DNA from: an uncultured Clostridium sp.
GTDB taxonomy: Bacteria > Bacillota > Clostridia > Oscillospirales > Acutalibacteraceae
Assembly: GCA_964448835.1 (NCBI GenBank)
Contig: CAYUXK010000004.1
Location: 409-64,408, forward strand
Length of the DNA: 64,000 nucleotides
Direction: 5' to 3'
Position numbers and translations under genes: made by a program. How positions within the stretch are numbered: position 1 is the stretch's first letter; every line of letters begins with the position of its first letter. A model generated the notes under the pieces. That model ran no database searches and was not told where the DNA came from. It was given only the letters and a program-made list of their open reading frames with translations. Positions 1-42,413 of this stretch are shown in pieces.

Positions 1-603
1 GTTACCCGCCTTGAGGATGTCGGGGTTTTTCTGACTTCATATGATTTTGATGTTCCATCAAGCACCTTTGGGCGGATTGTCTTTGTTGTTCTTATCTCGG
101 TTGTGCCCGCGCTCACGGAGGAACTCGCCATAAGAGGCACGGTTATGCAGCCGCTTCGCAGGTACGGCGACACCTTCGCGATTATCGCTTCGTCCGCGGT
201 TTTCGCAATTATGCACGGCAACCTCGTTCAGGCGCCGTTCGCTTTTATCGCCGGCATCACAATAGGCTACGCGGTGTGTATCACGGGCACGCTGTGGACC
301 GGCATTGCTATCCATTTCCTAAATAACCTCTATTCTGTCGCCGTATCGTTTATGGTTGAGGACATTAAAAATGAGACGCTGCTGAATTTGATTTATATGC
401 TTTCGCTTTTCATCATTTACGCCGTGGGCTGCGTTTGCGCGGTGATGTTTTTCGCTACAAAAAAAGAAGCCCGTCTTCGCCCCTCGGTAACCTGCCTGAC
501 CGCGGGCAAAAAAGCCGCCGCCTTCATATTTACGCCGCCGATGATAATTGCCATAATAATTATGCTTTCTTACACGGCGGATTATGTCGAATTCAAGGGG
601 TAA
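1..603 (+). CDS. CPBP family intramembrane glutamic endopeptidase (CAAX protease-like), 5' end outside window
   Basis: Frame open from base 1; motifs EELAIRG, FAIMHGN and IHFLNN plus several hydrophobic segments. Confidence 0.85.
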   Translation, partial: VTRLEDVGVFLTSYDFDVPSSTFGRIVFVVLISVVPALTEELAIRGTVMQPLRRYGDTFAIIASSAVFAIMHGNLVQAPFAFIAGITIGYAVCITGTLWTGIAIHFLNNLYSVAVSFMVEDIKNETLLNLIYMLSLFIIYAVGCVCAVMFFATKKEARLRPSVTCLTAGKKAAAFIFTPPMIIAIIIMLSYTADYVEFKG

Positions 604-608
604 CGGCG

Positions 609-1064
609 ATGGAGGATAAAGATTTTATGCTTCTCGCGCTCGAGCAGGCGCGGCTGTCGGTCTCTCAGGGCGAGGTGCCCGTCGGAGCGGTCATAGCTCG
701 GCGCGGCGAGGTTGTTTCAACAGGCAGAAACCGCCGCGAAAACGATAAAAACGCCCTTGCCCACGCGGAGCTTGAGGCGATAGACAAGGCCTGCAAGGCC
801 CTTGGCGGCTGGCGGCTTTGGGAATGCGAGCTGTTCGTTACCCTTGAGCCCTGCCCGATGTGCGCGGGCGCGATAATCAACTCCCGAATTCGCCGCGTGG
901 TTTTCGGCGCGTATGACTCAAAAGCGGGCTCGTGCGGCACATTGGTTGACCTTTTCAGCCTGCCGTATAATCACCGCCCCGAGGTTGAAGGCGGATTTAT
1001 GCAGGAGGAGTGCGGCGAGGCTTTGAGTGAGTTTTTTTCAAATTTAAGAAAATCGCGGATATAA
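609..1064 (+). CDS. tadA: tRNA adenosine(34) deaminase
   Basis: MEDKDFMLLAL start at 609; HAE and TLEPCPMC Zn motifs; canonical position before SRP RNA-dnaX. Confidence 0.93.
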   Translation: MEDKDFMLLALEQARLSVSQGEVPVGAVIARRGEVVSTGRNRRENDKNALAHAELEAIDKACKALGGWRLWECELFVTLEPCPMCAGAIINSRIRRVVFGAYDSKAGSCGTLVDLFSLPYNHRPEVEGGFMQEECGEALSEFFSNLRKSRI

Positions 1065-1086
1065 CAAAATTTTTTGTAAAATCCCC

Positions 1087-1115
1087 TTGATATTACAGAT
1101 ATTTTATAATATAAT
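1087..1115 (+). promoter_or_regulatory. sigma-A promoter for SRP RNA
   Basis: TTGATA (1087-1092), 17 bp spacer, TATAAT (1110-1115). Confidence 0.75.
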
Positions 1116-1123
1116 ATATCGGT

Positions 1124-1280
1124 AAGGGACAGGGCTTTGATTTGGTCATGTGGCGTGCGGGTCCTGTGCGACAGGGCACCGTGAACCATGTCAGGCGGGG
1201 AACCGAGCAGCATTAAGCGGACAGTTTTGTGCGCCACAGTCTGCCTGCCGCCATATGACCAAGTTAACGCTTTGTTCCTT
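1124..1280 (+). ncRNA. ffs: Signal recognition particle RNA
   Basis: Conserved S-domain core GTGAACCATGTCAGG-CGG-GGAA-CCG-AGCAGCATTAAG; long rod closed by AAGGGACAGGGC/GCTTTGTTCCTT and TTGGTCATGTGGC/GCCATATGACCAA; lies between tadA and dnaX. Confidence 0.92.
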
Positions 1281-1332
1281 ATCTTTTTGTTTTTTTATAT
1301 TACCATTATTTTCTGAGTGGGGGGCAGACCGT

Positions 1333-2862
1333 ATGTACCAGGCGCTATACCGCAAATGGCGTCCCGAGGATTTCGACAGCGTATCCGGTCAGCCGCAGGT
1401 AACCTCCACTTTAAAGAACGAGCTGATGCTCGGCAGGCTCTCGCACGCCTATCTTTTCAGTGGCTCGAGGGGCACGGGCAAAACCAGCTGCGCTAAAATT
1501 CTGGCAAAGGCGGTTAACTGCCTTAATTTAAAAGACGGCAACCCCTGCAACGAATGTGAAAGCTGCCGAGGCATAACTAACGGCTCTATTTTAGACGTGC
1601 TTGAAATCGACGCGGCAAGCAACAACGGCGTTGATTATATCCGCGATTTGCGCGAGGAGGTCAATTATACCCCCGTCTCGGTAAAATACCGAGTCTATAT
1701 TATTGACGAGGTTCATATGCTCTCGTCGGGCGCGTTTAACGCCCTGCTCAAAACTCTTGAGGAGCCGCCTAAGCACGTTATTTTTATTCTTGCCACAACA
1801 GAGGTTTATAAGCTGCCGGCCACGGTGCTTTCGCGTTGCCAGCGGTTTGATTTTAAGCGCATTTCCCCCGAAGAAATAGCTTCGCGTCTGCTCTATGTCG
1901 CTGAGCAGGAGGGTGTTTCGATTGAGAGAGACGCCGCGTTGCTCATCGCTCAAATTGCTGACGGCGGTATGCGTGACGCCCTTTCGCTGCTTGACCTCTG
2001 CCTTGTCAGGAACTCCGATGTCACCGTTGACAGCGTTCGCTCCGCCGCCGGAATTGCCGGAACGGAGCATCTTTTTGAGTTCTCGCAGTATATCGCCAAA
2101 AGCGATTTTACCGCTGCTCTTTCTCTAGTTACAAGGCTTCATAACGAGGTTTGCGACGCCGAGAGCCTTTGTGCCGAGCTTACGCAGCACTTTCGTAATC
2201 TTATGGTCGCCAAAACCGTTCCGAACTGCGCCGGGCTGATTATATGCACTCCAAAAGAGCTATCACAGCTCAAGGAGCGTTGCACCGAAATGAAGCTTTC
2301 AAAAATTCTTGACTGCCTTGATGTGCTTGAGCAGGCGTCAAAGGATATGAAGGGCGCAATTAATAAAAAAATCAAGCTTGAGTCCGCCGTTGTGCGTATG
2401 TGCGCTCTTTCGTCCGCTCCCGGCGCCGAGGCGGCTCCCGTTGCCGAGCCCGTCTTGCGGGCGGCTGAGCCTGCTCCTGACGACTCCAAGGCAAAGGTGC
2501 CTGTTCCTGCCCCTGCCGCTCCTTCAGCCGAAAACGCGGCTGCTTTGACCTTTGCGGACGGCGTTTTTGACCGCTGGCCCGAGGTTATTGAAGCGCTTAA
2601 GAAGTATGATATGCCTCTTGTTGGCATTCTGTCAGGCTCGAGCGCCAACTTTGTTAACGGCGGATTACAGATTGTTTCGGATAACCCGACCCTTTACGAT
2701 TTTATCCGCACAGATACCCATGCCTCCGATTTAAAGCGCAGCGTAACCGATGTTTTGGGCGTAAGCGTCAAAATGAGCGTCAAAAAAAATACACCGACAG
2801 AAGCAGTAAAAAATCCGCTTGCGGATATTAAATCAAAGATAAATAATTTCAACAATAATTGA
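1333..2862 (+). CDS. dnaX: DNA polymerase III subunit gamma/tau
   Basis: MYQALYRKWRP start; Walker A GSRGTGKT, Zn cluster, DEVHMLS, SRC motif. Confidence 0.97.
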   Translation: MYQALYRKWRPEDFDSVSGQPQVTSTLKNELMLGRLSHAYLFSGSRGTGKTSCAKILAKAVNCLNLKDGNPCNECESCRGITNGSILDVLEIDAASNNGVDYIRDLREEVNYTPVSVKYRVYIIDEVHMLSSGAFNALLKTLEEPPKHVIFILATTEVYKLPATVLSRCQRFDFKRISPEEIASRLLYVAEQEGVSIERDAALLIAQIADGGMRDALSLLDLCLVRNSDVTVDSVRSAAGIAGTEHLFEFSQYIAKSDFTAALSLVTRLHNEVCDAESLCAELTQHFRNLMVAKTVPNCAGLIICTPKELSQLKERCTEMKLSKILDCLDVLEQASKDMKGAINKKIKLESAVVRMCALSSAPGAEAAPVAEPVLRAAEPAPDDSKAKVPVPAPAAPSAENAAALTFADGVFDRWPEVIEALKKYDMPLVGILSGSSANFVNGGLQIVSDNPTLYDFIRTDTHASDLKRSVTDVLGVSVKMSVKKNTPTEAVKNPLADIKSKINNFNNN

Positions 2863-2878
2863 GGAAGGATGTTTTAAT

Positions 2879-3208
2879 ATGAAAGCAAGAATCCCGGGCG
2901 CAGACCAAAACAATATGATGAAACAAATTCAGGATATGCAGGATAATATGGCCCGCATACAGGCAGAGGTTGAGGCAACGGAGTTTTCTTCAAGCGTTGG
3001 CGGCGGAACTGTTGAGATTACCGTTAACGGCGCCCACGAGGTTACGGCCATTAAGCTTAAACCCGAGGTTGTTGACCCCGAGGATGTTGAAATGCTTGAG
3101 GATTTGATTATGTCCGCCTTTAACGAGAGCCTTCGCAAGGCTGACGAAGCAATGAAGAGCGGCCTTGAGCAGGCAAAGGGCGGGCTTTCAGTGCCCGGGC
3201 TGTTTTAA
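2879..3208 (+). CDS. ybaB: YbaB/EbfC nucleoid-associated protein
   Basis: VDPEDVEMLEDLI motif; between dnaX and recR; GAGGAAGG RBS. Confidence 0.93.
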   Translation: MKARIPGADQNNMMKQIQDMQDNMARIQAEVEATEFSSSVGGGTVEITVNGAHEVTAIKLKPEVVDPEDVEMLEDLIMSAFNESLRKADEAMKSGLEQAKGGLSVPGLF

Positions 3209-3808
3209 TTGGCGGGCTTTGCCTCACCGCTCGAGCAGCTCATAGAGCAGCTGGCGCGTTTACCCTCCGTGGGGCGCAAAAGCGCTCAGCGGCTTGCTTT
3301 TTATCTGCTTTCACTGAGCGAAAACGACGCGGAGGCCTTTATACAGTCTATCCTTGACGCGCGCAACAAAATCCGCCGCTGCGCGGATTGCTGCGATTTA
3401 ACAGATAAGGAGCAATGCCCGATTTGCTCAAGCCCCTCGCGTGACCGCAGTGTCATATGCGTGGTTGAGAACCCGAAGGATGTTATCGCCATTGAGCGAA
3501 CCCATGAATATAACGGCCTTTACCATGTGCTTCACGGGGTTATTTCGCCGATGAATAATATAGGCATTGAGGATTTATGCATAAAGGAGCTTATCAACCG
3601 CCTGGCCGATGACCGTATTAAAGAGGTTATCATGGCAACCAACCCCACGGTTGAGGGCGAAGCGACCGCGATGTATATCTCACGCCTTATTAAACCGATA
3701 GGTGTTTCGGTCAGCCGGCTTGCTTACGGTATTCCGGTTGGCGCCGAGCTTGAATATGCCGATGAATACACACTTATCCGAGCCATTGAGGGAAGAAATC
3801 AGCTTTAA
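3209..3808 (+). CDS. recR: Recombination mediator RecR
   Basis: LPSVGRKSAQRLA HhH, C4 Zn finger, Toprim ATNPTVEGE; TTG start. Confidence 0.97.
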   Translation: MAGFASPLEQLIEQLARLPSVGRKSAQRLAFYLLSLSENDAEAFIQSILDARNKIRRCADCCDLTDKEQCPICSSPSRDRSVICVVENPKDVIAIERTHEYNGLYHVLHGVISPMNNIGIEDLCIKELINRLADDRIKEVIMATNPTVEGEATAMYISRLIKPIGVSVSRLAYGIPVGAELEYADEYTLIRAIEGRNQL

Positions 3809-3821
3809 AAATGAGCTTAAT

Positions 3822-4020
3822 ATATCCACACTTTTTTAAACATTCAACAGCTCTTTTTTAACAGTTTTAACATTGCACTTTTTTGGTTTGTTAAGTATTT
3901 CATTTTTTTTAACAGCTTCTCGATTTTTAATAAAACCGGTTTTCCCATATATTTCAAGCAATGGGGGAGTTTTCCATAATTTTAACAGCCCCTACTTCTA
4001 CTACTGTTTAATATTACCTA
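3822..4020. other. Putative replication origin unwinding region: DnaA-box-like repeats, GC clamp, DnaA-trios, AT-rich tract
   Basis: ATATCCACA 3822-3830; TTTTCCATA 3970-3978 and ATTTTAACA 3979-3987 followed by GCCC, CTA-CTT-CTA-CTA-CTG (3992-4006) and TTTAATATT, directly upstream of dnaN. Confidence 0.7.
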
Positions 4021-4050
4021 TTCAAACACTTAACCAAAGGAGAAAAAGAT

Positions 4051-5160
4051 ATGAAGGTTGTTTGCAATACCACCGCCTTGTCGGAGGCATGTCAAAATGT
4101 TCAGAGAGCTGCCTCAACTAAGACGGCAATACCCGCTATTGAGGGTATTTTGCTTGTTTCTTCAAACGGAGCGCTTAATTTAACGGGCTATGACCTTGAG
4201 ATGGGCATAACCACCTCTATCCCCGCGAGGGTTGAGGAGGAGGGCTCAATAGTTCTCAACGCCCATATGCTAAGTGACATTATCCGTAAGCTCCCCGGCG
4301 AGGTTGTTACATTAGACAGCGACCAGCGTCAGATTGCCTCAATCAAATGCGGCGACGCAGAATTTTCGCTCATAGGTATCGCGCCCGAGGAATATCCCGA
4401 GCTGCCTTCGGTTATGGGCGGATATCCAGTGACAATTGACCAGAATATTCTTAAGGATATGGTCAGAAAAACAATTTTCTCCGTTGCGGTTAAGGATAAT
4501 AAAGCAGTTCATACGGGCGTTAAGTTTGAGCTTGAGGAGAATCATATTCGTCTTATCGCTGTTGACGGTGTAAGACTTGCAATCAGAAACGAGACTGTCA
4601 GCTACTCCGGCGAGGAGCTTTCATTCGTTGTTCCGGCTAAAACGCTCTCCGAGGTTATTAAGCTCATGGGCGATGAGGAAGAGGACATTTCGATCGGTGT
4701 CGGCAAACGCCATATCATTTTTGAGGTTAAGGATTACAGGATTATTTCGCGCCTTCTTGACGGCGATTTTCTTAATTACAAGGCTGCCATCCCTTCAAGC
4801 ACAAAGACCGTTATTTCAGTCAATACCCGCAGCTTCATTGACAGCATTGAAAGAACCTCATTAATTATTACCGATAAGCTCAAAAGCCCGGTAAAATGCG
4901 TTTTTGATAACAATCTTATCAGCATTTCGAGCATAACCTCTCTGGGCACGGCGAGCGACAGAATTCCCGCGGCGGTTAACGGCGAGGGCTGCACGGTGGG
5001 ATTTAACAACAAATATATGATTGAAGCTCTCAGGGTTTGCGATACCGACGAGGTTAAAATCATGCTTAACGGCGCGATTTCGCCTATTTTGATTGTTCCG
5101 CCCGTTGACGACGCTTTCATTTTCCTGATTCTTCCCGTGAGGCTTAAGAATGAAGATTAA
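4051..5160 (+). CDS. dnaN: DNA polymerase III beta clamp
   Basis: GYDLEMGI, AVDGVRLA, RLLDGDFLNY and terminal LILPVRL motifs; AAAGGAG RBS. Confidence 0.97.
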   Translation: MKVVCNTTALSEACQNVQRAASTKTAIPAIEGILLVSSNGALNLTGYDLEMGITTSIPARVEEEGSIVLNAHMLSDIIRKLPGEVVTLDSDQRQIASIKCGDAEFSLIGIAPEEYPELPSVMGGYPVTIDQNILKDMVRKTIFSVAVKDNKAVHTGVKFELEENHIRLIAVDGVRLAIRNETVSYSGEELSFVVPAKTLSEVIKLMGDEEEDISIGVGKRHIIFEVKDYRIISRLLDGDFLNYKAAIPSSTKTVISVNTRSFIDSIERTSLIITDKLKSPVKCVFDNNLISISSITSLGTASDRIPAAVNGEGCTVGFNNKYMIEALRVCDTDEVKIMLNGAISPILIVPPVDDAFIFLILPVRLKNED

Positions 5161-5389
5161 TGTTAAGGTCGCCAAAAAACCCGAAATAACAAAGCATATA
5201 GATACGGATTTTATCCGCCTTGACGCTTTTCTCAAGATGTGTGACGCTGTTCAGACAGGCGGGCACGCCAAGATTGTTATTCAGGACGGCGAGGTTCACG
5301 TTAACGGTGAAGTATGCCGCCAGCGCGGCAAAAAACTGCATAAGGGCGATAAGGCCGAATTCAACAATACTATTTATACAGTAGGCTGA
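5150..5389 (+). CDS. yaaA: S4-domain RNA-binding protein YaaA
   Basis: IRLDAFLK...TGGHAK...QRGKKL; between dnaN and recF. Confidence 0.9.
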   Translation: MKINVKVAKKPEITKHIDTDFIRLDAFLKMCDAVQTGGHAKIVIQDGEVHVNGEVCRQRGKKLHKGDKAEFNNTIYTVG

Positions 5390-5390
5390 T

Positions 5391-6488
5391 ATGAGAATAA
5401 TCAGACATTCCGCGGATAAGTTCCGCAACCTGTCCGGCCTGAGCTTTGAGCCTGACGAAGAAATGAACATCATCTACGGCGAGAATGGGCAGGGCAAAAC
5501 AAATATAATAGAAAGCATGTGGCTTTTCACGGGCTGTTACAGCTTCCGCACGCGTAAAAACGCTCAGCTCATTATGGATAATGAGAAGGAAGCAACGGCA
5601 AGTGTTGATTTTTATGCTGACGGCAGAGAACAAAACGCAGTTATGAAAATCAACCAGCGCAAAGAGGTCACGCTAAACGGCATAAAAAGCGAGTCACCGC
5701 GCGTGATGCTCGGCAGGTTTTATGCCGTTGTTTTTTCGCCGAATTTACTGTCAATTGTTCAGGACGGCCCGGGCGAGCGCCGAAAGCTGATGGATGTCGC
5801 GATAAGCCTTATTAAACCGAATTATGCCGTTCTCACCGCGCGTTACCTTCGCGCCGTTGAGCAGCGAAACGCGCTTTTACGCCAAATGGTTGAGTCCCCG
5901 CGCCCCGCGGAGCTTGAGCCGTGGGATGAGGAAATTGTCAAGCTCGGCTCGCGCATTGTTGATTACAGACTTGATTACATTGACCGCCTGAGAACCATCG
6001 CGGGCGAAATCTACGGCGGGATAAGCGCCGGGCGCGAAGAATTTCTTATGGATTATGATTTTTATCGCTCGGGCGAAAAACCCTCGCTTGAAGCAATCGC
6101 GGAAAAGCTTCGCTCGGAGCTTGAAAAAAACCGCGAGAGCGATATTCGCCGCCAATACACAAGCGCCGGACCGCACGCTCACGATTTAATTCTGACTCTT
6201 AACGGGCGCGACGCGAGAGTTTTCGGCTCACAGGGGCAGCAGCGCTCCGCTTCTCTTGCAATGAAGCTTGGCGAGGCGGCTATAATAAAGGAGCTTTGCG
6301 GTGAGGAGCCTGTGGTTCTGCTAGATGATGTTATGAGCGAGCTTGACGAGGGAAGACAGGGCTTTATACTCAATTATTTAACCGATTGGCAGGTTTTTAT
6401 CACCTGCTGCGACCCTTCGCAGCTGCTGCGCTCAAAAAAAGGCAAGGCGTTTGAGGTAAAAAGCGGAAAAATCGAGGAAATATCGTAA
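5391..6488 (+). CDS. recF: DNA replication/repair protein RecF
   Basis: GENGQGKTN Walker A, GSQGQQRS, LLDDVMSELD. Confidence 0.97.
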   Translation: MRIIRHSADKFRNLSGLSFEPDEEMNIIYGENGQGKTNIIESMWLFTGCYSFRTRKNAQLIMDNEKEATASVDFYADGREQNAVMKINQRKEVTLNGIKSESPRVMLGRFYAVVFSPNLLSIVQDGPGERRKLMDVAISLIKPNYAVLTARYLRAVEQRNALLRQMVESPRPAELEPWDEEIVKLGSRIVDYRLDYIDRLRTIAGEIYGGISAGREEFLMDYDFYRSGEKPSLEAIAEKLRSELEKNRESDIRRQYTSAGPHAHDLILTLNGRDARVFGSQGQQRSASLAMKLGEAAIIKELCGEEPVVLLDDVMSELDEGRQGFILNYLTDWQVFITCCDPSQLLRSKKGKAFEVKSGKIEEIS

Positions 6489-6579
6489 TATCTGCATTAT
6501 TTTGTTTGTGTTGCAGAGAACGGTTATGACATTTCCGCAAGTATTCATCGATTGGTTATAATCCGGATGATTTATTATT

Positions 6580-6605
6580 GGGTCGTCGAGGACGCCGACC
6601 CCTAC
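6580..6605 (-). repeat. GTAG-type REP-like hairpin (single copy seen)
   Basis: Minus strand reads GTAG-GGGTCG-G-CG-TCCT-CG-A-CGACCC, i.e. GTAG followed by an imperfect palindrome. Confidence 0.55.
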
Positions 6606-6655
6606 AAAAAAATGTAATCCTTTTGTATCATTAATTCACATCAAAGGAGAATAAA

Positions 6656-6928
6656 ATGTATCTCCACCTGGGACTTGACAAGGTTATCACCTTTGACGAC
6701 ATTCTCGGCATTTTTGATTTGGATACCTCCACGGTGTCCAAAAATACGAGGGATTACCTCGCGCGCGCCCAAACGGCAGGCGAGGTTGAAAACGTTTGCA
6801 AGGATTTGCCGAAGTCTTTTATTGTTTGCCTTGACGGCAAGGGCAAAAGGAAAATATATATTTCGCAGATTTCCTCCTCAACCCTGCTAAAAAGAACGGG
6901 GTATGTTGACAGCCTGACCAATGTATAA
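6656..6928 (+). CDS. remB: DUF370/RemB family protein
   Basis: MYLHLG...DILGIFDLD, PKSFIV, YISQISSSTLLKR; follows recF. Confidence 0.88.
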   Translation: MYLHLGLDKVITFDDILGIFDLDTSTVSKNTRDYLARAQTAGEVENVCKDLPKSFIVCLDGKGKRKIYISQISSSTLLKRTGYVDSLTNV

Positions 6929-6964
6929 TGTATATTATATAGTTTAATCTCTTAAAATATAAAG

Positions 6965-6996
6965 AAAAACAGCCCCCCTATTGGGAGGCTGTTTTT
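6965..6996. terminator. Bidirectional intrinsic terminator between remB and 5S rRNA
   Basis: AAAAACAGCCCCC...GGGAGGCTGTTTTT with A and T tails between convergent genes. Confidence 0.85.
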
Positions 6997-7002
6997 ATAA
7001 AT

Positions 7003-7118
7003 GTTGGCACCGACCTATCTTCCCGGGACGCTGCCGTCCAAGTATTTTCGGCACGATTGAGCTTAACTACCGTGTTCGGGATGGGAACGGGTGGACCCTC
7101 AACGTAATCAACACCAAC
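7003..7118 (-). rRNA. rrf: 5S ribosomal RNA (stand-alone)
   Basis: Reverse complement contains CCCGTTCCCATCCCGAACACGGTAGTTAAGC and AAGATAGGTCGGTGCCAAC; 116 nt with paired GTTGG/CCAAC ends. Confidence 0.97.
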
Positions 7119-7153
7119 TAAAAAACGCATCGGCGTTTTTTGAATGCCTGATG

Positions 7154-7182
7154 ATTATATAACGGCAAAGCCCTTTTGTCAA
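7154..7182 (-). promoter_or_regulatory. Consensus sigma-A promoter for the 5S rRNA gene
   Basis: Minus strand TTGACA (7177-7182), 17 bp, TATAAT (7154-7159). Confidence 0.9.
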
Positions 7183-7200
7183 GAGCTTTTTTAAAAAATG

Positions 7201-7701
7201 TTAAATTTTTTTAAATACCTTCAAAATTTCGCCGATATACATCTTGTGATAATCGCCTGAAGAATAATTATCCTCGATTGATATGTCGGCAAAGCCCTTC
7301 GGGTCAAAAAACTGTGAGGCAAGCTTCTTGCAAAGCAGAGTATACTCCGCCTGCTCAAAGGCAACAGAGCCCTGCTCAAATAGCGGCGTTAAGCCCGTGA
7401 GCGCGGCCTTATCGCAATCCCTGCCGCTATGCGAGCCGCAGAATTTTAATATATCCTTATGCTCGGGTGCGAAAAAACTGACCGTGAAAAGCTCCTCACG
7501 CTCGAAAAAGCCGAAGGTGTGGCGCTGCGGGCGGACGAAAACAAAAGCCGCGTCCTTGCCCCAGATTTCGCCTATCGCGCCCCAGCTGACGGTCATGGTG
7601 TTCCAGCTTTGCTCGTTTCCTGCGGCGATAAGGCCCCAATCGTCGCCAATGAGCTTAACCGGGCTTTCTTTAATATCTCTGATGTTGATTTCTTTAAGCA
7701 T
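7201..7701 (-). CDS. Flavin reductase family protein
   Basis: WNTMTVSWG, VFVRPQRHT, SGRDCDK, terminal DYHKMYIGEI; GGAGG RBS before ATG at 7701. Confidence 0.85.
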   Translation of the reverse strand: MLKEINIRDIKESPVKLIGDDWGLIAAGNEQSWNTMTVSWGAIGEIWGKDAAFVFVRPQRHTFGFFEREELFTVSFFAPEHKDILKFCGSHSGRDCDKAALTGLTPLFEQGSVAFEQAEYTLLCKKLASQFFDPKGFADISIEDNYSSGDYHKMYIGEILKVFKKI

Positions 7702-7859
7702 TAAGACTGACCTCCAAATAAAAATATGCGGTTGTTGTGAATTTTCTTTAAAATTACAGCAAAATATTATCAAGGAAAAATATATGCGGTTATTTGTTGT
7801 ATTATTATATCACAACGAGAAAATAATGCAATATTTATTTGCAGGCGGGAGCTGTAAAA

Positions 7860-8537
7860 ATGGCAGACCAGAAAACACCTGAAATCAAAGGACTTCTCAG
7901 AGATTTTATGATAAAAGTACCCCAGGAGATTTATACCTGCTCGGGAATAAAAATCTTGGGCAGGCGGATTAAATCCCTGTTATTTTCAACAGATGTGAGC
8001 ATTATCAGAAACACAAACGCCGATGCGATAATTGCAGTGTATCCCTTCACGCCGCAGCCTGTTATCACTCAGGCAGTTATGGCGGCGGCGGATGTGCCTG
8101 TCTTTGTCGGTGTAGGCGGCGGGCTTACACAGGGCACGCGGGTGGTGAACCTCGCGCTTCACGCCGAATTTCAGGGCGCGATCGGCGTGGTTGTTAACGC
8201 GCCGACATCAAACGAAGTAATCCGCGAGCTTGCTCGAACGATTGATTTACCGATTGTTGTTACTGTTGTATCAAAAGATGAGAACATAGCCGCGCGTCTT
8301 GACGCGGGGGCTTCGATTCTAAATGTATCCGCGGCGGCACTGACGCCCGAATGTGTGCGTGCAATAAAGCAAAGCTATCCCGATGTTCCGATTATCGCAA
8401 CGGGCGGACCGACGGGCGAAACAATTCTTGAAACCATAGCCGCGGGTGCGAACGCGATAACCTGGACTCCGCCCTCAAACGGCGAGGTCTTTAAGAAAAT
8501 TATGGACAATTACCGAAAGGGCCTGCCCCACCCGTGA
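7860..8537 (+). CDS. Uncharacterised TIM-barrel protein
   Basis: Alternating beta/alpha pattern; VGVGGG, IIATGGP and GANAIT segments resemble phosphate-binding barrels; no specific function assignable. Confidence 0.55.
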   Translation: MADQKTPEIKGLLRDFMIKVPQEIYTCSGIKILGRRIKSLLFSTDVSIIRNTNADAIIAVYPFTPQPVITQAVMAAADVPVFVGVGGGLTQGTRVVNLALHAEFQGAIGVVVNAPTSNEVIRELARTIDLPIVVTVVSKDENIAARLDAGASILNVSAAALTPECVRAIKQSYPDVPIIATGGPTGETILETIAAGANAITWTPPSNGEVFKKIMDNYRKGLPHP

Positions 8538-8542
8538 TAAAA

Positions 8543-10840
8543 TCAAAGATGCTCGATAACCGCGGCAATCACGGTCATATCATCATACCGGTTGCCGCAC
8601 TTTGCTTTTGCTTTGTCAAGGATTTTATGGGCAAGGGCGGTGGCGTCCTCGCCGGCGAAGGCGTTAAGCTCATCGAGAACCCATTCGTTGCCGCAGCCCA
8701 GAATTCCGTCGCTCACCATCAGCAAAGTGTCGCCGCCGCGAAGGGTGAGGCTTGTTTTGGCAAACCTTGAGTTTGGCAGAATACCAAGCGGAGGCGAAGA
8801 AATCTGTAGAGTGCGCACCTTACCGATGCACTTGCAAAAGCTTGCCGCGGCACCCGCTTTATAAATTGTTGTTTCGCCTGTGAAAAGGTTAATCTCCGCG
8901 ATGTCAAGGGTTGAAAGCGACTCGTCGCCCGATTTGACTGTGAGCGCGCAGGCGGTCATATCAAGAGCGGTTTGCATTGAAATACCCGCGCGAAGAAGAC
9001 GCGAATAAAGCTCAACGGTCATCGCCGAATCCACAGCCGCCCTGCCGCCCGTACCCATTCCGTCGCTGAGCAGGATATAAGCGTTTGTCTCGCCGCGGAA
9101 AAACTCGTAATAATCACCGCAAAGCCTCTCGCCGCCGCAGGCGCTGCCCGCCGCGCCGAGCCTTACGGCAAAGCGTTCCTTGCCCGCGAAAGAAAGCAGC
9201 GCGCCCTCCTGAGCCTCGCTGAGCTCGGGCGGTGAAAGCTCGACGGCAAGCTCTGACGAAAGCTGCCTTGTCAAGCGTGAAAGGCTTACCCCGGGCATAA
9301 CGGATTTTACCTGCGCCTCAAGCTGCAAAGCTCCGTTCGGCGGTATCGCGCAGCGCAAGTTATCGACTGAAAGACCGTTTTCGCGTAAAACGCGAAGAGC
9401 GGTTTTTTCTTTTTCAAAAAGTATCTGCGACTCGCCGCGCAGTGACGCAGAAAGCTCGCCCAGGAGCGCCGCGGCGCTGTCAAACTGGCAGCAGGAAAGC
9501 TCGCGGCTGCGGGCGTTTGCCGCCTCAAGGGCGGAGCTTGTCGCTCGGGAGCGAAAAACCTTGTTAAAGGAATCGCCTACCTGCAAATAGCTCGGGCATT
9601 TCGCCTTGAATTCCTGCGGAAAGTCATCGGCCTCGATTTCTCCGCCGCCCCGCAGTTTCTCTGTAAAGGAGGCGAATTCTCCGCTTTCGGGGCAGCCGCC
9701 CTCTTTAAGCGGACAATCGGCGCAAACGCGCTCGTAAACACGAAGGCGGATTATGCTGTCGTGCGCCGGCGAAAGAGCCTCAATTCCGCGCGAAACGGTG
9801 CGAATACATTCGGCAACCGAGCCGACGGCGGCAGAGGCCTCCATGAGTCTGTCGGGCGCGGTTTCAAGCCCGCTCTGAATTCGCAGGGCCGCGGGGCGGG
9901 TTAAATGTGACTTGACGGTTTCAAGCTTGGATGTGGGAATCAGCATAAAAATTACCGAGGCCACCGCGCTCTCCGCAAGCACCGCAACCCCCTGTGAGGA
10001 GCCGTCGATTACAGCCGCCAGCGCCGCCGTTACCGAGAAAGCCGCGGCTGCCGCGAGCCTTCCGTAGGCAGAGAAAATGCCGCTTGTAAGACCGCATACG
10101 GCGTAGCAAACGCTCAAAACATTAGCCGTGCCTGTAGCGGCAAAGCATGTCCCGACGCAAACGCCGGCTATGCTGCCGCCCGGCTCCGCAAAAAGATAGG
10201 CCGCGGCAAGGAGCGTGAGCGAGCCTGCAATTCTTGCGGGGTGAATGCCGTAAATGCTGACATCCGAAACGCTTAAAAGCAGCGAGCAAACCGCGATTAT
10301 CAGGCTGACAAGGCTGCGCTTGTCAAGCAGGGCAAGACCCTCTCGCCTTTCAATGCCGTAGAGCGCGCCCATATAAAGAAGAACCGCGCCGCCGCCCAGA
10401 AGCGAATCACAAACGCATTGCAGGAATCCGCTCGCTGTTGGTACGCCTGCAAACAGCACTGTAATCCCGGTAACAATGCAAACGGAAAAAACGGTTAACG
10501 GCATAATCAGCCGCCTTTTTTCCGGAAGACCGATTTTCTCAAGCAAAAACGCCGCCGCGCCCGAGGCGATGCACACGGCGATATAGCGAATAAGTCCGGC
10601 GCCCGAAAGACGCAAAAAACCGCCCGCTATGGCGCCCGCGCAGGTATAAAAAATCGCCGTGCCGCGCGAGGCTGCCGTGAGTGAGGCGGAGAGCGGTATG
10701 TAAACGCCGAATAGCCGCGCGCCCGCGAGCAAAAAGCCGCTTGCGGCGTACCCTGCCGCGACAAGGGCCTTTTTGCCTGTTTCCCAGACGAGGTCAAGCT
10801 CATCCTCGTCACGGGCAACGCCGATTTTAGTTATCTCCAT
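8543..10840 (-). CDS. spoIIE: Stage II sporulation protein E (membrane PP2C phosphatase)
   Basis: About 10 TM segments, central Cys-containing region, C-terminal CGD, LSDGMG, TLD, MVSDG and DDMTV motifs. Confidence 0.88.
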   Translation of the reverse strand: MEITKIGVARDEDELDLVWETGKKALVAAGYAASGFLLAGARLFGVYIPLSASLTAASRGTAIFYTCAGAIAGGFLRLSGAGLIRYIAVCIASGAAAFLLEKIGLPEKRRLIMPLTVFSVCIVTGITVLFAGVPTASGFLQCVCDSLLGGGAVLLYMGALYGIERREGLALLDKRSLVSLIIAVCSLLLSVSDVSIYGIHPARIAGSLTLLAAAYLFAEPGGSIAGVCVGTCFAATGTANVLSVCYAVCGLTSGIFSAYGRLAAAAAFSVTAALAAVIDGSSQGVAVLAESAVASVIFMLIPTSKLETVKSHLTRPAALRIQSGLETAPDRLMEASAAVGSVAECIRTVSRGIEALSPAHDSIIRLRVYERVCADCPLKEGGCPESGEFASFTEKLRGGGEIEADDFPQEFKAKCPSYLQVGDSFNKVFRSRATSSALEAANARSRELSCCQFDSAAALLGELSASLRGESQILFEKEKTALRVLRENGLSVDNLRCAIPPNGALQLEAQVKSVMPGVSLSRLTRQLSSELAVELSPPELSEAQEGALLSFAGKERFAVRLGAAGSACGGERLCGDYYEFFRGETNAYILLSDGMGTGGRAAVDSAMTVELYSRLLRAGISMQTALDMTACALTVKSGDESLSTLDIAEINLFTGETTIYKAGAAASFCKCIGKVRTLQISSPPLGILPNSRFAKTSLTLRGGDTLLMVSDGILGCGNEWVLDELNAFAGEDATALAHKILDKAKAKCGNRYDDMTVIAAVIEHL

Positions 10841-10877
10841 TTTTAACAGTCCTTTCAATTATGCAATATACGGATTT

Positions 10878-10911
10878 ATTTTACATTATTGCACTAAAAT
10901 AATTTGTCAAA
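10878..10911 (-). promoter_or_regulatory. Putative Spo0A-dependent spoIIE promoter
   Basis: Minus strand TTGACA (10905-10910, inside a 0A-box-like TGTCAAA) lies 21 bp from TAAAAT (10878-10883). Confidence 0.45.
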
Positions 10912-11007
10912 GCACATAGGGCGAAAAAGCAAAGCTTATTATTTTTTTTGTAAATCTGCGTATTATACTGTTGTTTTTTTAATTTTTATGATATAATATT
11001 TAATATT

Positions 11008-11793
11008 ATGGGTAGATATGTTCGAAAAAAGAAGACCAAGGAGGTCGCTGTTACGGATACTCAAATCGAAGAAGGGCTTATAATCGGCAGGAACGCTGTT
11101 GCCGAGGCCTTAAAGAGCGGCAGAGAAATCGACTGCCTGCTCGTTGCCAAGGGCGAAAGAAGCGGCTCAATCGGTCAGATAATCAGCAGGTGCCGCGACA
11201 ACGGCATTGTGGTCAAAGAGGTTGATTCCCGTAAGCTTGACAGCCTTTGCGGCGGAGAAAATCATCAGGGTGTCGCCGCGAGAGCCGCGGCGCATGAATA
11301 TTCGGACATAGCGACGATTTTAGCGGCGGCTGAAGAAAAGGGCGAGGCGCCGTTCATTGTAGTTTGCGACAGCCTTGAGGATCCTCACAATCTCGGCGCG
11401 ATTATCCGGACCGCCGACGCGTGCGGAGCGCACGGAATCGTTATCCCAAAGCGCCACGGAGTCGCGCTGACATACGCGGTCGGCAAGGTTTCGGCGGGCG
11501 CTGTTGAATATGTTCCGGTCGCGAGGGTTTCCAATCTCGCCTCTGCCATTGACGAGCTTAAAGAAAAAGGTCTTTGGGTTTACGGCGCGGATATGCAGGG
11601 CGAGGATTTCGGCAAGGTTGATTTTTCGGGCGCGGTCGCGCTTGTGGTCGGCTCTGAGGGCAAGGGTATCAGCCGACTGATAAGAGAGAAATGCGATTTT
11701 CTCGTTTCGCTCCCGATGAAAGGCAAAATTAATTCCCTTAACGCCTCCGTGGCGGCGGGGATTCTGATGTATGAGGTTGCAAGGCACAGGTAA
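11008..11793 (+). CDS. rlmB: 23S rRNA (guanosine-2251-2'-O)-methyltransferase
   Basis: IIGRNAV, NHQGV, DPHNLGAIIR, GSEGKG and SLNASVA SPOUT motifs. Confidence 0.93.
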   Translation: MGRYVRKKKTKEVAVTDTQIEEGLIIGRNAVAEALKSGREIDCLLVAKGERSGSIGQIISRCRDNGIVVKEVDSRKLDSLCGGENHQGVAARAAAHEYSDIATILAAAEEKGEAPFIVVCDSLEDPHNLGAIIRTADACGAHGIVIPKRHGVALTYAVGKVSAGAVEYVPVARVSNLASAIDELKEKGLWVYGADMQGEDFGKVDFSGAVALVVGSEGKGISRLIREKCDFLVSLPMKGKINSLNASVAAGILMYEVARHR

Positions 11794-11808
11794 CCAAAGT
11801 TTTGTGAG

Positions 11809-14736
11809 GTGAGAGTTTTGAGCGGGTTCGATAATTCTGCCGTCAGCAGCGCGACACTCGACGCTATTCTTGATGAGATAAAATCAAAAAAGACCGAGAA
11901 GACCTCCGCCGGGCCGTCAGGCGCGGCGAGGACCTGGTCTATGGACGATATTGACCGCCTGATTGCCGACACCGGCAAAGACAAGGCGGCAAAGCCGTTA
12001 TACAATCCGCCAAAGCCCATGGCCGAGCCCCCCGCGCCGCCAAGAGCTTTTGAACCCTCTCCTGTTGCGCAGGAAAGCGGACTTTCAAGGTTCCTGAGCA
12101 GCGAGTTTGACAGTAGCATTTTCACCGTTGAAGCCCCCGCCCCCGAGCTGCCGAGGCCGCTGCCCGATGTTTTTTCGGATTCCCGTCAGCTGCTCCCCGA
12201 GGTTGAAGGGCAGGAAACCTTCTTTGAGCCGATTGTGAGCGAGCCCGAGGTCTTTGAAATTGAAACAGTCGTTGTTCCCGACGAGGCTCCGCCCGTTCCG
12301 GCAGAGCAAAAGTATATTTTTGACAAAACCGCGCCCGCCGCTCCTCCCGAGAAACCGCGCCCGATTATCAACGAGTTCCCGGAGGACGAGTCAAGCGCGT
12401 TAGAATTTTTCCGCACAAAATCAGGAGCGGAGCGAAAGCCCGCGGCGGTTTCAGCCGACGGAACAAGCGAATTCAGAGCAAGATTTTTCAACAAACTGCG
12501 CCTTGAAAGAACCGCTGAGGTTGACGATTCACTGGAGGGTCCCGTTGACAAATCCGGCATAATTGTTGAAAGAAAGCCGTCAGAAGACGCTCAGCCCGGT
12601 GACCTTCAGCCCCTGCCTAAAATTGTCGCGGCTGAGGATATGCTTCAGGGCGGCGGCGATTATGACGGCAAGACGATAATTGTCGGCACCGAGAAGGAAC
12701 CCGTTCTCAAGCCTAAAAAAGAGGATGACAAGGTTGACGGGCAGATAGTGCTTACAGGCTTTGACGAGCCTCACCAAGAGGCGGAGCCCGTGACCGCCGA
12801 CGAGGTTGATATAGAGCAGGCTCTTTGGGAAAAACGAAGACAAAAGGCAAAGAGCTTTAAAATAGTTGACGCTCCCCCGATTGAGAACCTTGACGAGCCC
12901 GAGCATACATACGAGGCCGAGGAGCAGGAACAAAAGGAGCGCAAAAAAGAGAACCGCAGACATCTGGAGGATGAGAATCCCCCCGATGACTCCCCCGCGG
13001 GCGAATACACAATGAGCGCCGAGAGAATCGCCGTTCACAGCCGCCTTAACAGGGCCGTTAAAAAAGCCTCCGCAGCGCTTATAGTCAACCTGATTGGTGA
13101 AGTTCTGTTTTTGCTGATGTTTTTCCTGCCGCGGATAGTCGAGGCGCTTTCATATAAGAGCGTTGTTTTCGCCGATGGCTCGTTATTTATGCTTTCGGCA
13201 AACGCGGCGCTTCTCATAATCCTGACGGTAATCAATAACGAGAGCTTTATCGACGGATTCACTAAGCTGATAAATAAAAAACCCGACGCCGATTCCGCCG
13301 CGAGCCTGTGCGTGGCTGTGGCTTTGGTACAGACCGTGATTTGCGCCGTTGCCGGCAACGGCGCGTCAAGCGCTCCGATTTTTACCGCTTCTGCGGCGTT
13401 CGCGATGGTGATTGCCACACTTACGCGCAAAACCGTCGCGGCTCGCATACTCGAAAATTTCGAGGTTTGCGCTTATAAAAAGGAACACAGCCTTTACGCA
13501 ATCCACCGCTTCGATAACGAGGCGGAGATATTTGAGCTGGGCAGAGGTCTTTTGATGGGCAACGCCGAGCTGCTCTACTCCTCCAAGGTCGGCTTCCCCT
13601 CGGATTTTCTCAAGAACTCCGACAGCTGCTCCGTGCAGGAAAAAACAGCGAAAATCCTCATTCCCGCGGCTGCTGCCGGCGCTGCCGTTTCGGCGGTGCT
13701 TACGGGGGTTTTCACAAAGGATGTTTACCTTGCCCTCGCCGCGTTCGCGGGAACATTTTGCATCTGCTCGCCTGTGCTCTCGGCGCTTTGCCCCGAATGG
13801 ATTACAAGAAGGTCAAACATTACTCTTAACGCCGCAGGCTCGATGATTGTCAGCATTGACGCGGCAGAAAAAACCGTTCAGGCAAACGCCGTAGTTATTG
13901 ACAGCGCCGATATTTTTGATCGTTCGAACTGCGCCATGCACGGAATGAAGGATTTCAAAAACATCAGAATTGACGATGTTCTTCTTTACGCGGCGGCGCT
14001 TGTTATTAAGTCGGGCGGTCCGCTTCGCGAAAGCTTTGAGCAGGTTGTCAGCAACAGGCAGGATTTGCTGCCGCCCGTCAAGGAGCTTGTTTATGAGGAT
14101 AAGCTCGGCATCGCGGCAAGAATTCACGGGCAAAAGGTTTTGCTCGGCAACCGCAGCCTTCTCACCAATCACAACATTGAGGTTCCCGATAAATCGGTTG
14201 AGGATAAATATACCCACAGTGGGCGCAAGGTAATGTACCTTGCCGTCGCGGGTAAGCTCGCGGCGCTGTTTGTTGTGAGCTACGCCGTTGACGAATCGCT
14301 TCGCCCCTACCTTAAAGAGCTTGAAAGCAACGGCACTCAGGTGCTTGTGCGCACAAACGACGTCAATGTGACCGAGGAGCTTATTTCTCACGCGTTTGAT
14401 ATGCCCAAGCAAAGCATCCACATTCTTTCATCTGTCGCGGGCAGACTATTTAAGCGCCGGCGTGACGCGGTTACGGACCGTTTGCCTGTTCGCGTAATGC
14501 ACGACGGCACGGCGTATTCAATGCTGCGCACAGTTGCGGCGGCAGGCAGAATGAACGCCGCGTCGCGGTTAGGCTCAGCGGCTCAGATAGCGGCGGCTGC
14601 AATCGGATTTGCGGGCATGGCTGTGCTTGGGGGATTAGGATTATCCGAATATTTTAACGGTTTTACGGCGGTGCTTTTCAGCGTCGCGGCAACGGCGGCG
14701 GTACTCGGGGTTACTTCAATTAAGCGCATAAAATAA
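11809..14736 (+). CDS. Degenerate P1B-type ATPase-like membrane protein with long acidic/Pro-rich N-terminus
   Basis: C-terminal half tracks P1B N and P domains (LGIAARIHGQKVLLGN, GRKVMYLAVAGKLAALF, VLVRTND), but DKTGT is replaced by DSADI; start could be TTG 11818. Confidence 0.65.
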   Translation: MRVLSGFDNSAVSSATLDAILDEIKSKKTEKTSAGPSGAARTWSMDDIDRLIADTGKDKAAKPLYNPPKPMAEPPAPPRAFEPSPVAQESGLSRFLSSEFDSSIFTVEAPAPELPRPLPDVFSDSRQLLPEVEGQETFFEPIVSEPEVFEIETVVVPDEAPPVPAEQKYIFDKTAPAAPPEKPRPIINEFPEDESSALEFFRTKSGAERKPAAVSADGTSEFRARFFNKLRLERTAEVDDSLEGPVDKSGIIVERKPSEDAQPGDLQPLPKIVAAEDMLQGGGDYDGKTIIVGTEKEPVLKPKKEDDKVDGQIVLTGFDEPHQEAEPVTADEVDIEQALWEKRRQKAKSFKIVDAPPIENLDEPEHTYEAEEQEQKERKKENRRHLEDENPPDDSPAGEYTMSAERIAVHSRLNRAVKKASAALIVNLIGEVLFLLMFFLPRIVEALSYKSVVFADGSLFMLSANAALLIILTVINNESFIDGFTKLINKKPDADSAASLCVAVALVQTVICAVAGNGASSAPIFTASAAFAMVIATLTRKTVAARILENFEVCAYKKEHSLYAIHRFDNEAEIFELGRGLLMGNAELLYSSKVGFPSDFLKNSDSCSVQEKTAKILIPAAAAGAAVSAVLTGVFTKDVYLALAAFAGTFCICSPVLSALCPEWITRRSNITLNAAGSMIVSIDAAEKTVQANAVVIDSADIFDRSNCAMHGMKDFKNIRIDDVLLYAAALVIKSGGPLRESFEQVVSNRQDLLPPVKELVYEDKLGIAARIHGQKVLLGNRSLLTNHNIEVPDKSVEDKYTHSGRKVMYLAVAGKLAALFVVSYAVDESLRPYLKELESNGTQVLVRTNDVNVTEELISHAFDMPKQSIHILSSVAGRLFKRRRDAVTDRLPVRVMHDGTAYSMLRTVAAAGRMNAASRLGSAAQIAAAAIGFAGMAVLGGLGLSEYFNGFTAVLFSVAATAAVLGVTSIKRIK

Positions 14737-39764: not shown

Positions 39765-40467
39765 CAGAGAGCTTTTATCCTCGCTTGCCGTGGGCTTTGG
39801 AGTGGAGCTTGACGAACAAAAGCTTGATTTGCTCGACGCCTATGCCGAGATGATGCTCCACACAAATGAAAGCATGAACCTTACCGCGATAAAAGATGCC
39901 CGTGGCGTTACGGTTAAGCATTTCGCAGACAGCATTTCACTTCTCGGCGCAGTGAATCCGCCCCAAGGTGCGAAGGTAATAGATATTGGGACCGGCGCGG
40001 GCTTCCCGGGCATTCCCCTTTTGATTTGCAGACCGGATTTGGATTTAACCCTTCTCGACTCAACGCGCAAAAAACTTGACTTCATTGACGAAAGCGCCGC
40101 GAAGCTCAATTTACCCGTCAAAACGCTGCATCTTCGCGCGGAGGAAGCGGGCAAAAGCGCTCTGCACCGTGAAAAATATGATTTAGTCGTTTCTCGCGCT
40201 GTGGCGAGCCTCGAGGTGCTGAGCGAATATTGTCTGCCGCTTGTAAAAATCGGCGGAGTTTTCGCGGCAATGAAGGGCGCGAATTGGCAGATGGAAGCGC
40301 AGCAGGCTCAAAGCGCGATTAAGCTTCTTGGCGGTGAAAAATTGCACGAAAAAAGCTTTTCACTTGCCGATGATGGCGAAAGATGCATAATTGTCATCAA
40401 AAAGATATCGCAAACATTGCCAAAATACCCCAGAGCCTCGACAATTATTTCGAAAAAACCGCTGTGA
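39754..40467 (+). CDS. rsmG: 16S rRNA (guanine-527-N7) methyltransferase
   Basis: NLTAI, KHFADS, DIGTGAGFPG, RAEE, SRAVA. Confidence 0.96.
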   Translation: MVIDRELLSSLAVGFGVELDEQKLDLLDAYAEMMLHTNESMNLTAIKDARGVTVKHFADSISLLGAVNPPQGAKVIDIGTGAGFPGIPLLICRPDLDLTLLDSTRKKLDFIDESAAKLNLPVKTLHLRAEEAGKSALHREKYDLVVSRAVASLEVLSEYCLPLVKIGGVFAAMKGANWQMEAQQAQSAIKLLGGEKLHEKSFSLADDGERCIIVIKKISQTLPKYPRASTIISKKPL

Positions 40468-40582
40468 ATCCGCAGATTTATGTCGTCGGAGCGAAAAATT
40501 GCGCGCACAATAATGTTGGACAAACTCCCCTCCCCGGTGCTATGCTTGAAGCAACGAACAAGCCACCGAGGGGGGTAAAATT

Positions 40583-41440: not shown

Positions 41441-41501
41441 CCTGATTAATTTAACTACCACTACCATATCTTTCTCTTTCACACCCACATCCACAGCAGA
41501 G

Positions 41502-41529
41502 AGGGCAGGCTAAAAAGCCTGTCCTTTTT
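41502..41529 (+). terminator. Intrinsic terminator after noc
   Basis: AGGGCAGGC-TAAAAA-GCCTGTCCT-TTTT. Confidence 0.75.
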
Positions 41530-41533
41530 GCAT

Positions 41534-41549
41534 TGTTCCACGGGGAACA
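41534..41549. promoter_or_regulatory. Second parS-like site upstream of parA
   Basis: TGTTCCACGGGGAACA, one mismatch from the palindrome TGTTCCACGTGGAACA. Confidence 0.7.
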
Positions 41550-41631
41550 TTTTGTTCACATAAAGTTTACTACCATTTTGTAAAAACATATGATATAATA
41601 CCCGTGTATACATAAGTTGGGAGAGAGACGC

Positions 41632-42399: not shown

Positions 42400-42413
42400 T
42401 AGGAGTGAGTTAA

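Follow-up and report, generated by a model that had tools for sequence, protein, structure and literature searches.

Where does replication begin on a chromosome whose dnaN gene has no dnaA beside it? The question is raised by a stretch of 64,000 nucleotides (the window; contig C4:409-64408 of the draft genome G000) from an uncultured gut Clostridia bacterium of the Acutalibacteraceae (Oscillospirales), in which a 242-nt spacer between recR and dnaN (3809-4050) carries an element resembling the unwinding half of a bacterial replication origin (oriC). The draft comprises 118 contigs (2.14 Mb, 96.6% complete, about 50% G+C). The gene order rnpA-rpmH-dnaA-dnaN has been described as the conserved origin context of the Firmicutes (PMC7561715); here, there is no dnaA anywhere in the 64-kb window. 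We read the recR-dnaN spacer as the working chromosomal origin of this species, with dnaA unlinked from it, and put the probability of this reading at roughly 0.85; DnaA binding, unwinding and initiation at the spacer are predicted from the sequence.

The predicted unwinding module upstream of dnaN

The spacer was compared with the rules for the basal unwinding system (BUS; Richardson 2016/2019, Pelliciari 2021). These call for a DnaA-box with at most 2 mismatches at 0-16 bp from the first DnaA-trio, a tandem second DnaA-box with at most 4 mismatches, a run of three or more DnaA-trios (3'-NAN-5', consensus 3'-GAT-5') in tandem on the same strand and, beyond the trios, an AT-rich unwinding region (PMC8287927). 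The modal box-to-trio spacer is 13 bp in Pelliciari et al. 2021 (PMC8287927). Mismatches were counted against the DnaA-box consensus TTATCCACA, and a box with at most 1 mismatch is referred to as near-consensus. The spacer contains the following elements.

3809-4050, no strand: recR-dnaN spacer, the predicted oriC, 242 nt, about 27% G+C compared with about 50% for the genome; homologous spacers in about 39 relatives
3822-3830, + strand: DnaA-box ATATCCACA, the sole near-consensus box of the spacer
3855-3863, + strand: variant box TTTTTAACA, first copy of the 8-mer TTTTAACA
3864-3872, + strand: variant box GTTTTAACA, second copy of TTTTAACA
3906-3914, + strand: variant box TTTTTAACA, third copy of TTTTAACA
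3940-3949, + strand: TTTTCCCATA, a degenerate box-like element
3970-3978, + strand: BUS box A, TTTTCCATA, 2 mismatches to TTATCCACA; the relatives align TTATACCAT, TTTTCCACA or TTATCCACA
3979-3987, + strand: BUS box B, ATTTTAACA, fourth copy of TTTTAACA, 4 mismatches; the relatives align ATTTCAACA, ATTTCCACG, ATTTTCACG or ATTTTAACG
3988-3991, + strand: GC spacer GCCC, which brings the distance from box A to the first trio to 13 bp
3992-4006, - strand: five DnaA-trios, 3'-GAT GAA GAT GAT GAC-5' (top strand CTA CTT CTA CTA CTG)
4007-4035, no strand: AT-rich tract, the presumed unwinding region, beginning with TTTAATATT at 4007-4015
4036-4042: ribosome-binding site of dnaN, AAAGGAG

The first-pass annotation of this DNA had described two boxes, GCCC, a trio run and an AT tract in succession just before dnaN, with recR upstream. 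This string is present at 3970-4015, where TTTTCCATA, ATTTTAACA, GCCC and CTA CTT CTA CTA CTG are followed by the AT tract TTTAATATT. Box A (2 mismatches) lies 13 bp ahead of the first trio at 3992, box B follows it in tandem, and each of the five trios on the bottom strand has a central A. The sequence beyond the trios is AT-rich by composition, with 27-33% G+C in the windows covering 4000-4044. The resemblance to the dnaA-dnaN spacer of Bacillus subtilis that had been claimed for the string holds, since it fits both the B. subtilis and the Clostridioides difficile module as well as the BUS rules; a Bacillus/Clostridioides-type basal unwinding system in the right-hand 60 nt of the spacer is thus a supported, sequence-based assignment.

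Runs of at least four CT[AT] triplets occur three times in the 2.14-Mb assembly (both strands), and only in the spacer is such a run flanked by a box pair and GC clamp on one side and by an AT tract on the other. The 8-mer TTTTAACA is found in 4 copies, all on one strand, within the 242-nt spacer, where 0.027 are expected (P about 2e-8).

In the mechanism that we propose, DnaA (encoded on a separate contig, C95) would bind the tandem boxes at 3970-3987 and would also occupy the weaker boxes upstream. An oligomer of ATP-DnaA would grow out from the boxes, pass over the 4-nt GC clamp and extend along the five bottom-strand trios (3992-4006); stretching of the trio strand would then open the AT-rich tract preceding dnaN, at which the helicase would load.

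Conservation of the spacer and the position of dnaA

For comparison we used 24 genomes of the same genus, 17 loci from public collections (15 of these from additional genomes) and a family-wide sample with one genome per genus. The relatives are metagenome-assembled genomes (MAGs) of gut origin, from goat, water buffalo and faecal samples with the host unstated. The gene recR lies directly upstream of dnaN in 24/24 same-genus genomes, in the 15 additional MAGs and in 3 genera besides, on contigs that in the relatives reach up to 190 kb either side of the junction. The whole 49-nt module recurs, in identical register, in about 39 of these related recR-dnaN spacers: two boxes, a GC clamp of 4 nt, a run of five trios (consensus CTACTACTACTACTA) and an AT tract. 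By their sequence these spacers plainly read as origins. The relatives' spacers have a median of 3 near-consensus boxes (range 0-6, most of them 2-6) and of 6 boxes with at most 2 mismatches; the arrays are made up of TTTTCCACA and TTATCCACA, of which TTTTCCACA is the commonest.

That dnaA would be found elsewhere in the genome had been supposed from the window, and it was located on C95. This sole dnaA of the assembly (C95:188-1483) encodes 432 amino acids with no internal stops and matches Bac_DnaA (216.7 bits) and Bac_DnaA_C (86.9 bits). The contig is 4.4 kb long, with 187 nt upstream of dnaA; the genes after dnaA we take, from reading the sequence, to be ftsY, rdgB, yhbY, smpB and ssrA. 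Because the tadA-to-recR block intervenes, dnaA of this genome must lie more than about 4.4 kb from the spacer. Among 31 genomes of the genus that were searched dnaA was detected in 29, each time on another contig than dnaN, and in the relatives it sits inside long contigs among other neighbours. Minimum distances between dnaA and the spacer, estimated from contig geometry, are about 89 kb (G024), 84 kb (G022) and 70 kb (G001).

These data bear on the alternative that the recR-dnaN junction is an artefact of assembly or binning and that dnaA truly adjoins the spacer. The draft is indeed fragmented (118 contigs, with dnaA on one of 4.4 kb), but the same junction occurs in all 24 genus genomes, in 15 independently assembled MAGs and in 3 other genera, dnaA of the relatives has other neighbours on long contigs, and on C95 the gene after dnaA reads as ftsY, not as the spacer. 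We regard such an artefact as barely credible: since the adjacency recurs in every genus genome sampled, the junction is not a misassembly, and the concern voiced on this point in the first-pass annotation is met.

In 21 of 25 relatives rpmH is found divergent from dnaA and 230-411 nt upstream of it; the break therefore fell on the dnaN side of dnaA. In 24 of 26 relatives no near-consensus box occurs within 600 nt upstream of dnaA, where only a promoter is seen. The bipartite arrangement, in which dnaA stands between two DnaA-box clusters, is consequently not the one seen here, as recR precedes the spacer and no box cluster precedes dnaA in the relatives. What is seen is a dnaN-linked oriC with unlinked dnaA: the box cluster is directly before dnaN, and dnaA, in the relatives, is distant. 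In the present genome rpmH is on C69:6998-7129, beside a different gene, such that rpmH, dnaA and oriC-dnaN occupy three separate contexts; as rpmH and dnaA are on separate contigs, this species has rearranged further.

The family-wide sample contains 25 genera with the classical dnaA-dnaN pair and 3 genera with recR-dnaN. The same module was found in most of the dnaA-dnaN spacers of the 25 other genera; in the nearest of them (G090, DnaN 67% identical) the dnaA-dnaN spacer reads TTTTCAACC TTTTCCACC GCCC CTATTACTAAGACTA TTTATAAG. Because the module is shared with the dnaA-dnaN spacers of sister genera, the recR-dnaN spacer is the old dnaA-dnaN spacer, retained with dnaN, which bears out the earlier suggestion that the unwinding half of the origin had stayed with dnaN. 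We envisage a rearrangement, in an ancestor that the genus shares with a few sister genera of the family, that would have cut between dnaA and this spacer (incC/oriC2). The spacer, together with dnaN-yaaA-recF, would have been fused to tadA-ffs-dnaX-ybaB-recR, and dnaA would have been left behind, mostly beside rpmH.

In four genera that keep dnaA-dnaN the spacer between rpmH and dnaA has 0, 0, 0 and 1 near-consensus boxes. Since this spacer is box-poor even there, the family origin was probably already effectively one-part ahead of the unlinking of dnaA, and a one-part state may have made the split tolerable. The same observation speaks to the possibility that the origin is still in two parts, the spacer being the unwinding half and relying on a distant, looped box cluster (an analogue of oriC1/incAB, for instance one of the clusters on contigs C40 or C19 described below). 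In C. difficile oriC2 without oriC1 did not unwind in vitro (PMC7561715), and the present spacer is short of strong boxes, with strong clusters elsewhere in the genome. However, most relatives hold 2-6 near-consensus boxes within the spacer itself, unwinding in B. subtilis requires only the box pair and the trios (PMC8287927), and the rpmH-dnaA spacer was box-poor in family members in which dnaA and dnaN are still adjacent. A two-part origin is, in our judgement, highly improbable.

GC skew, other candidate sites and the variant boxes

The four long contigs of relatives that contain the spacer gave the following values for the position of the cumulative GC-skew minimum and for the skew on either side.

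G001:C26, 131 kb: spacer at 79.3 kb, cumulative minimum at 78 kb; skew -0.030 to the left, +0.043 to the right
G021:C17, 85 kb: spacer at 37.1 kb, cumulative minimum at 36 kb; skew -0.017 to the left, +0.022 to the right
G024:C20, 340 kb: spacer at 70.9 kb, cumulative minimum at 70-75 kb; skew -0.027 to the left, +0.019 to the right
G022:C7, 237 kb: spacer at 190.4 kb, cumulative minimum at 223 kb (ambiguous); skew -0.021 to the left, -0.005 to the right

On three of the four the cumulative minimum is 1-4 kb from the spacer. Ten further loci, each with flanks of 10 kb, all have a negative mean skew upstream and a positive one downstream (10/10 for both), the sign changing at dnaN. At dnaA there is no change of sign on any of three relative contigs (3/3); dnaA is on the strand of opposite skew on these contigs, which suggests that it is transcribed toward the origin in those relatives. 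In the genome under study the + strand skew is positive, about +0.05, over the 54 kb to the right of the site. Gene-strand bias was patchy and weak across these genomes (two crude open reading frame callers) and was set aside as evidence either way. On G024:C20 the skew turns from + to - at about 285-340 kb (loci L078-L080), some 215 kb to the right of the origin in a genome of 2.4 Mb. This reversal is too near the origin for a terminus and is likely an inversion or a chimeric join.

Elsewhere in the assembly a scan for CT[AT] runs on both strands identified no other BUS-like site, and a search of the whole assembly for clusters of canonical DnaA-boxes identified no origin-like cluster. The densest canonical-box match (C78:776-912) is AT-rich, coding-like by eye and devoid of trios, and the top matches to a looser, family-style box pattern (C7 and C21) are partly or wholly coding. 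Two intergenic box clusters were also rejected as origins: one at about 9650-9900 on C40, upstream of ylxM-ffh-rpsP (TTATTCACC TTTTCCACA ... TGTTGAAAA), has no trios and no skew flip, and the other at about 9490-9560 on C19, upstream of a gene for 96 amino acids (TTATCAACA TTTTCCACA G AGTTTTCAACA), has no trios and lies in mainly positive skew. Both are read as regulatory or titrating sites. The skew switches inside C13 (about 25 kb) and C2 (about 10 kb) are accompanied by no box or trio module, and an extreme AT-rich patch at C13:28.2 kb proved to be a run of N (C13:28198-28296), which is a gap in the scaffold or else withheld sequence.

Several observations weigh against the spacer as a working origin. 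By the canonical consensus it contains one box with at most 1 mismatch and three with at most 2 (0.86 expected), while canonical TTTTCCACA-type clusters stand on C40 and C19. Within the module box B is the weaker point, its 4 mismatches being the limit of what the tandem-box rule allows. The cumulative GC skew, put forward in the first-pass annotation as a check, places the flip at the spacer and not at dnaA in the relatives (three of four long contigs), but in this genome only 4.2 kb are available to the left of the site, and their skew (+0.019) is not negative over a length too short to inform. G022:C7, one of the four long contigs, has no clear flip, the ten loci of the mean profile are related and hence not independent tests, and the skew amplitudes are small (about 0.02-0.04), with internal switches on other contigs of this draft. 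The genes dnaX-ybaB-recR point toward the site, as do most genes of the 10 kb to the left in the relatives, and would run head-on to a leftward fork; this caveat had been raised before and stands, though we attach little weight to it. Finally, the assembly is 96.6% complete and C95 ends 187 nt before dnaA, so that an unassembled box cluster could be located there in this genome.

The shortage of consensus boxes, the contig end upstream of dnaA and the non-negative skew to the left speak for the rival reading that the spacer is a relic, or a regulatory DnaA-binding region (controlling the dnaN promoter, for example) that does not fire, with replication starting elsewhere, such as before dnaA. 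DnaA-box clusters away from origins are known as regulators (PMC3245932). A promoter operator, however, needs neither trios nor a GC clamp nor a box pair, and these are kept in register in about 39 genomes. The complete upstream regions of dnaA in the relatives are promoters without a box cluster or skew flip, the skew does flip at the spacer on 3/4 long contigs, and the assembly has no second BUS-like site. A silent spacer is therefore quite improbable, and the complete homologous regions of the relatives also argue against an origin in unassembled sequence just before dnaA of this genome.

Upstream of the BUS the relatives carry TTTTCCACA boxes; this genome has TTTTAACA (four copies, box B included) and TTTTCCCATA. 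This set of boxes is at the weak end of the genus but not unique: near-consensus boxes are absent from the spacers of six relatives, which carry TTxTTCAC-type variants. A shift in the specificity of DnaA toward TTTTAACA was considered and discarded: many relatives have the variant at the position of box B, as does a genus with dnaA-dnaN (L162), DnaA of this genome retains the standard RDHSTV motif, and clusters of canonical boxes are present elsewhere in the genome. The recognition-helix motif of DnaA (loci L034-L060) is RDHSTV here and in G006 and G018, RDRTT(I/V) in most species and RHYSTV in G022 and G010. The similarity of this genome's DnaA to a DnaA of another family (57%) is about the same as that to DnaAs of its own genus (52-71%); these values hint that the initiator may have evolved fast after it was unlinked from the origin.

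A tentative idea, which we think unlikely, is that the origin of this species has drifted to near-total reliance on low-affinity variant boxes (the four copies of TTTTAACA, TTTTCCATA, TTTTCCCATA and the single near-consensus box), with canonical TTTTCCACA clusters left at regulatory sites. Were this the case, then together with the lost linkage to dnaA and rpmH it would mean that the threshold for initiation has been re-tuned naturally. Firing would be confined to high ATP-DnaA, with the strong non-origin clusters titrated first, and the genus would offer a natural series on the co-evolution of box affinity, initiator sequence (RDHSTV, RDRTT, RHYSTV) and gene linkage.

Relation to known origins and the neighbouring genes

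By descent the spacer corresponds to the oriC2/incC half of a Firmicute origin, and it would work as that half does; it lies outside the bipartite rnpA-rpmH-dnaA-dnaN arrangement. It is alike to the incC/BUS of B. subtilis (DnaA-boxes 6/7, GC cluster, trios, AT-rich DNA unwinding element) in the order of its elements and their orientation to dnaN. The likeness extends to the tandem box pair that abuts a GC clamp of about 4 nt, the 3'-GAT-5' trios, the 13-bp spacing from the better box and the downstream genes dnaN-yaaA-recF. Unlike in B. subtilis, recR rather than dnaA is upstream, no second box cluster flanks dnaA, and the boxes are weak variants (TTTTCCATA, TTTTAACA). The oriC2 of C. difficile (PMC7561715), also from the class Clostridia, is located directly upstream of dnaN and has the trio string 5'-CACCTACTACTATTACTACTATGA-3', with a GC clamp and a CTA-type run that are nearly the same. 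C. difficile, however, keeps rnpA-rpmH-dnaA-dnaN and needs oriC1 and oriC2 in vitro, whereas the present genome has an unlinked dnaA, and no cluster resembling oriC1 was found in it.

Outside the Firmicutes, the cyanobacterial oriC (DoriC 10.0, PMC6323995) is similar in that it is usually beside dnaN, has TTTTCCACA boxes and has dnaA elsewhere. The phylum is unrelated and the rearrangement independent; the event described here is datable inside one family because sister genera keep dnaA-dnaN. In Escherichia coli, too, the initiator gene has been uncoupled from the origin (oriC, gidA-mioC) by rearrangement (PMC8287927, PMC4285127), but that origin differs in architecture and in the genes around it and has a weak BUS score (PMC8287927), whereas the BUS here is textbook. 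The recR-dnaN origin is thus a new lineage of a known arrangement, unusual for Firmicutes, and no new kind of element. We found no literature on origins in Acutalibacteraceae in open-access text.

As a natural exception to the Firmicute rule, the clade would offer a test by nature of whether the unwinding half is enough by itself. These Clostridia would have no more of the origin left than the spacer on the dnaN side, unlinked from dnaA and rpmH, and retention of this spacer alone fits the idea that the box pair and trios are a self-sufficient core. If dnaA were taken as the start of the genome, the origin would be out by at least 70-90 kb in the relatives, and peak-to-trough estimates of growth rate anchored at dnaA would suffer the same error. 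The sister genera with dnaA-dnaN permit a before-and-after comparison, and the variation of the box sequences and of the DnaA recognition helix within the genus provides material on co-evolution.

The genes flanking the spacer (tadA-like, signal recognition particle (SRP) RNA, dnaX, ybaB, recR, dnaN, yaaA-type, recF) are all on the + strand; they are listed here with the parS site further to the right.

435-1064, + strand: tadA-like deaminase gene, first in the left-hand block tadA-ffs-dnaX-ybaB-recR
1155-1253, + strand: SRP RNA gene ffs (Rfam RF00169, 60.8 bits), in the conserved tadA-ffs-dnaX-ybaB-recR block left of the origin
1254-2862, + strand: dnaX, clamp loader tau/gamma (Pfam DNA_pol3_delta2, 1.4e-45, and DNA_pol3_gamma3)
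2879-3208, + strand: ybaB/ebfC (Pfam YbaB_DNA_bd, 3.3e-31)
3209-3808, + strand: recR, immediately upstream of the spacer (Pfam Toprim_4, RecR_HhH, RecR_C)
4051-5160, + strand: dnaN, beta clamp (Pfam DNA_pol3_beta, all three domains)
5150-5389, + strand: yaaA-type S4-domain gene (Pfam S4_2, 1.4e-24)
5391-6488, + strand: recF (Pfam SMC_N/AAA_23), completing the classical order dnaN-yaaA-recF
39368-39383, no strand: perfect parS TGTTCCACGTGAAACA; a parS with 2 mismatches is also present at 41534-41549; the two sites compare with 0.03 expected

The open reading frame of dnaX as listed begins at 1150 and overlaps ffs (1155-1253), and its Pfam match starts from residue 80; because of the overlap with the SRP RNA gene the true start of dnaX is further downstream than 1150. 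A complete, lone 5S rRNA gene (7002-7118, - strand; Rfam, 87 bits) is situated about 3 kb right of the origin and directed toward it; 16S and 23S genes were not found within 1-12000 of the window.

The parS sites are situated among gidA, gidB, a parB-like gene, soj and spo0J (37887-43289 of the window, 34-39 kb right of the origin), and they fit the use that had been made of parS as a sign of origin proximity. Gene synteny left of dnaX is not kept between this genome and its relatives, and the ordering of contigs by synteny, meant to extend the left flank, was dropped for this reason. In the relatives soj-spo0J (loci L100-L115 at 1-1600) is 8-10 kb to the left of the origin, compared with about 38 kb to the right here; this difference of side indicates that, among members of the genus, genes have been rearranged around and across the origin.

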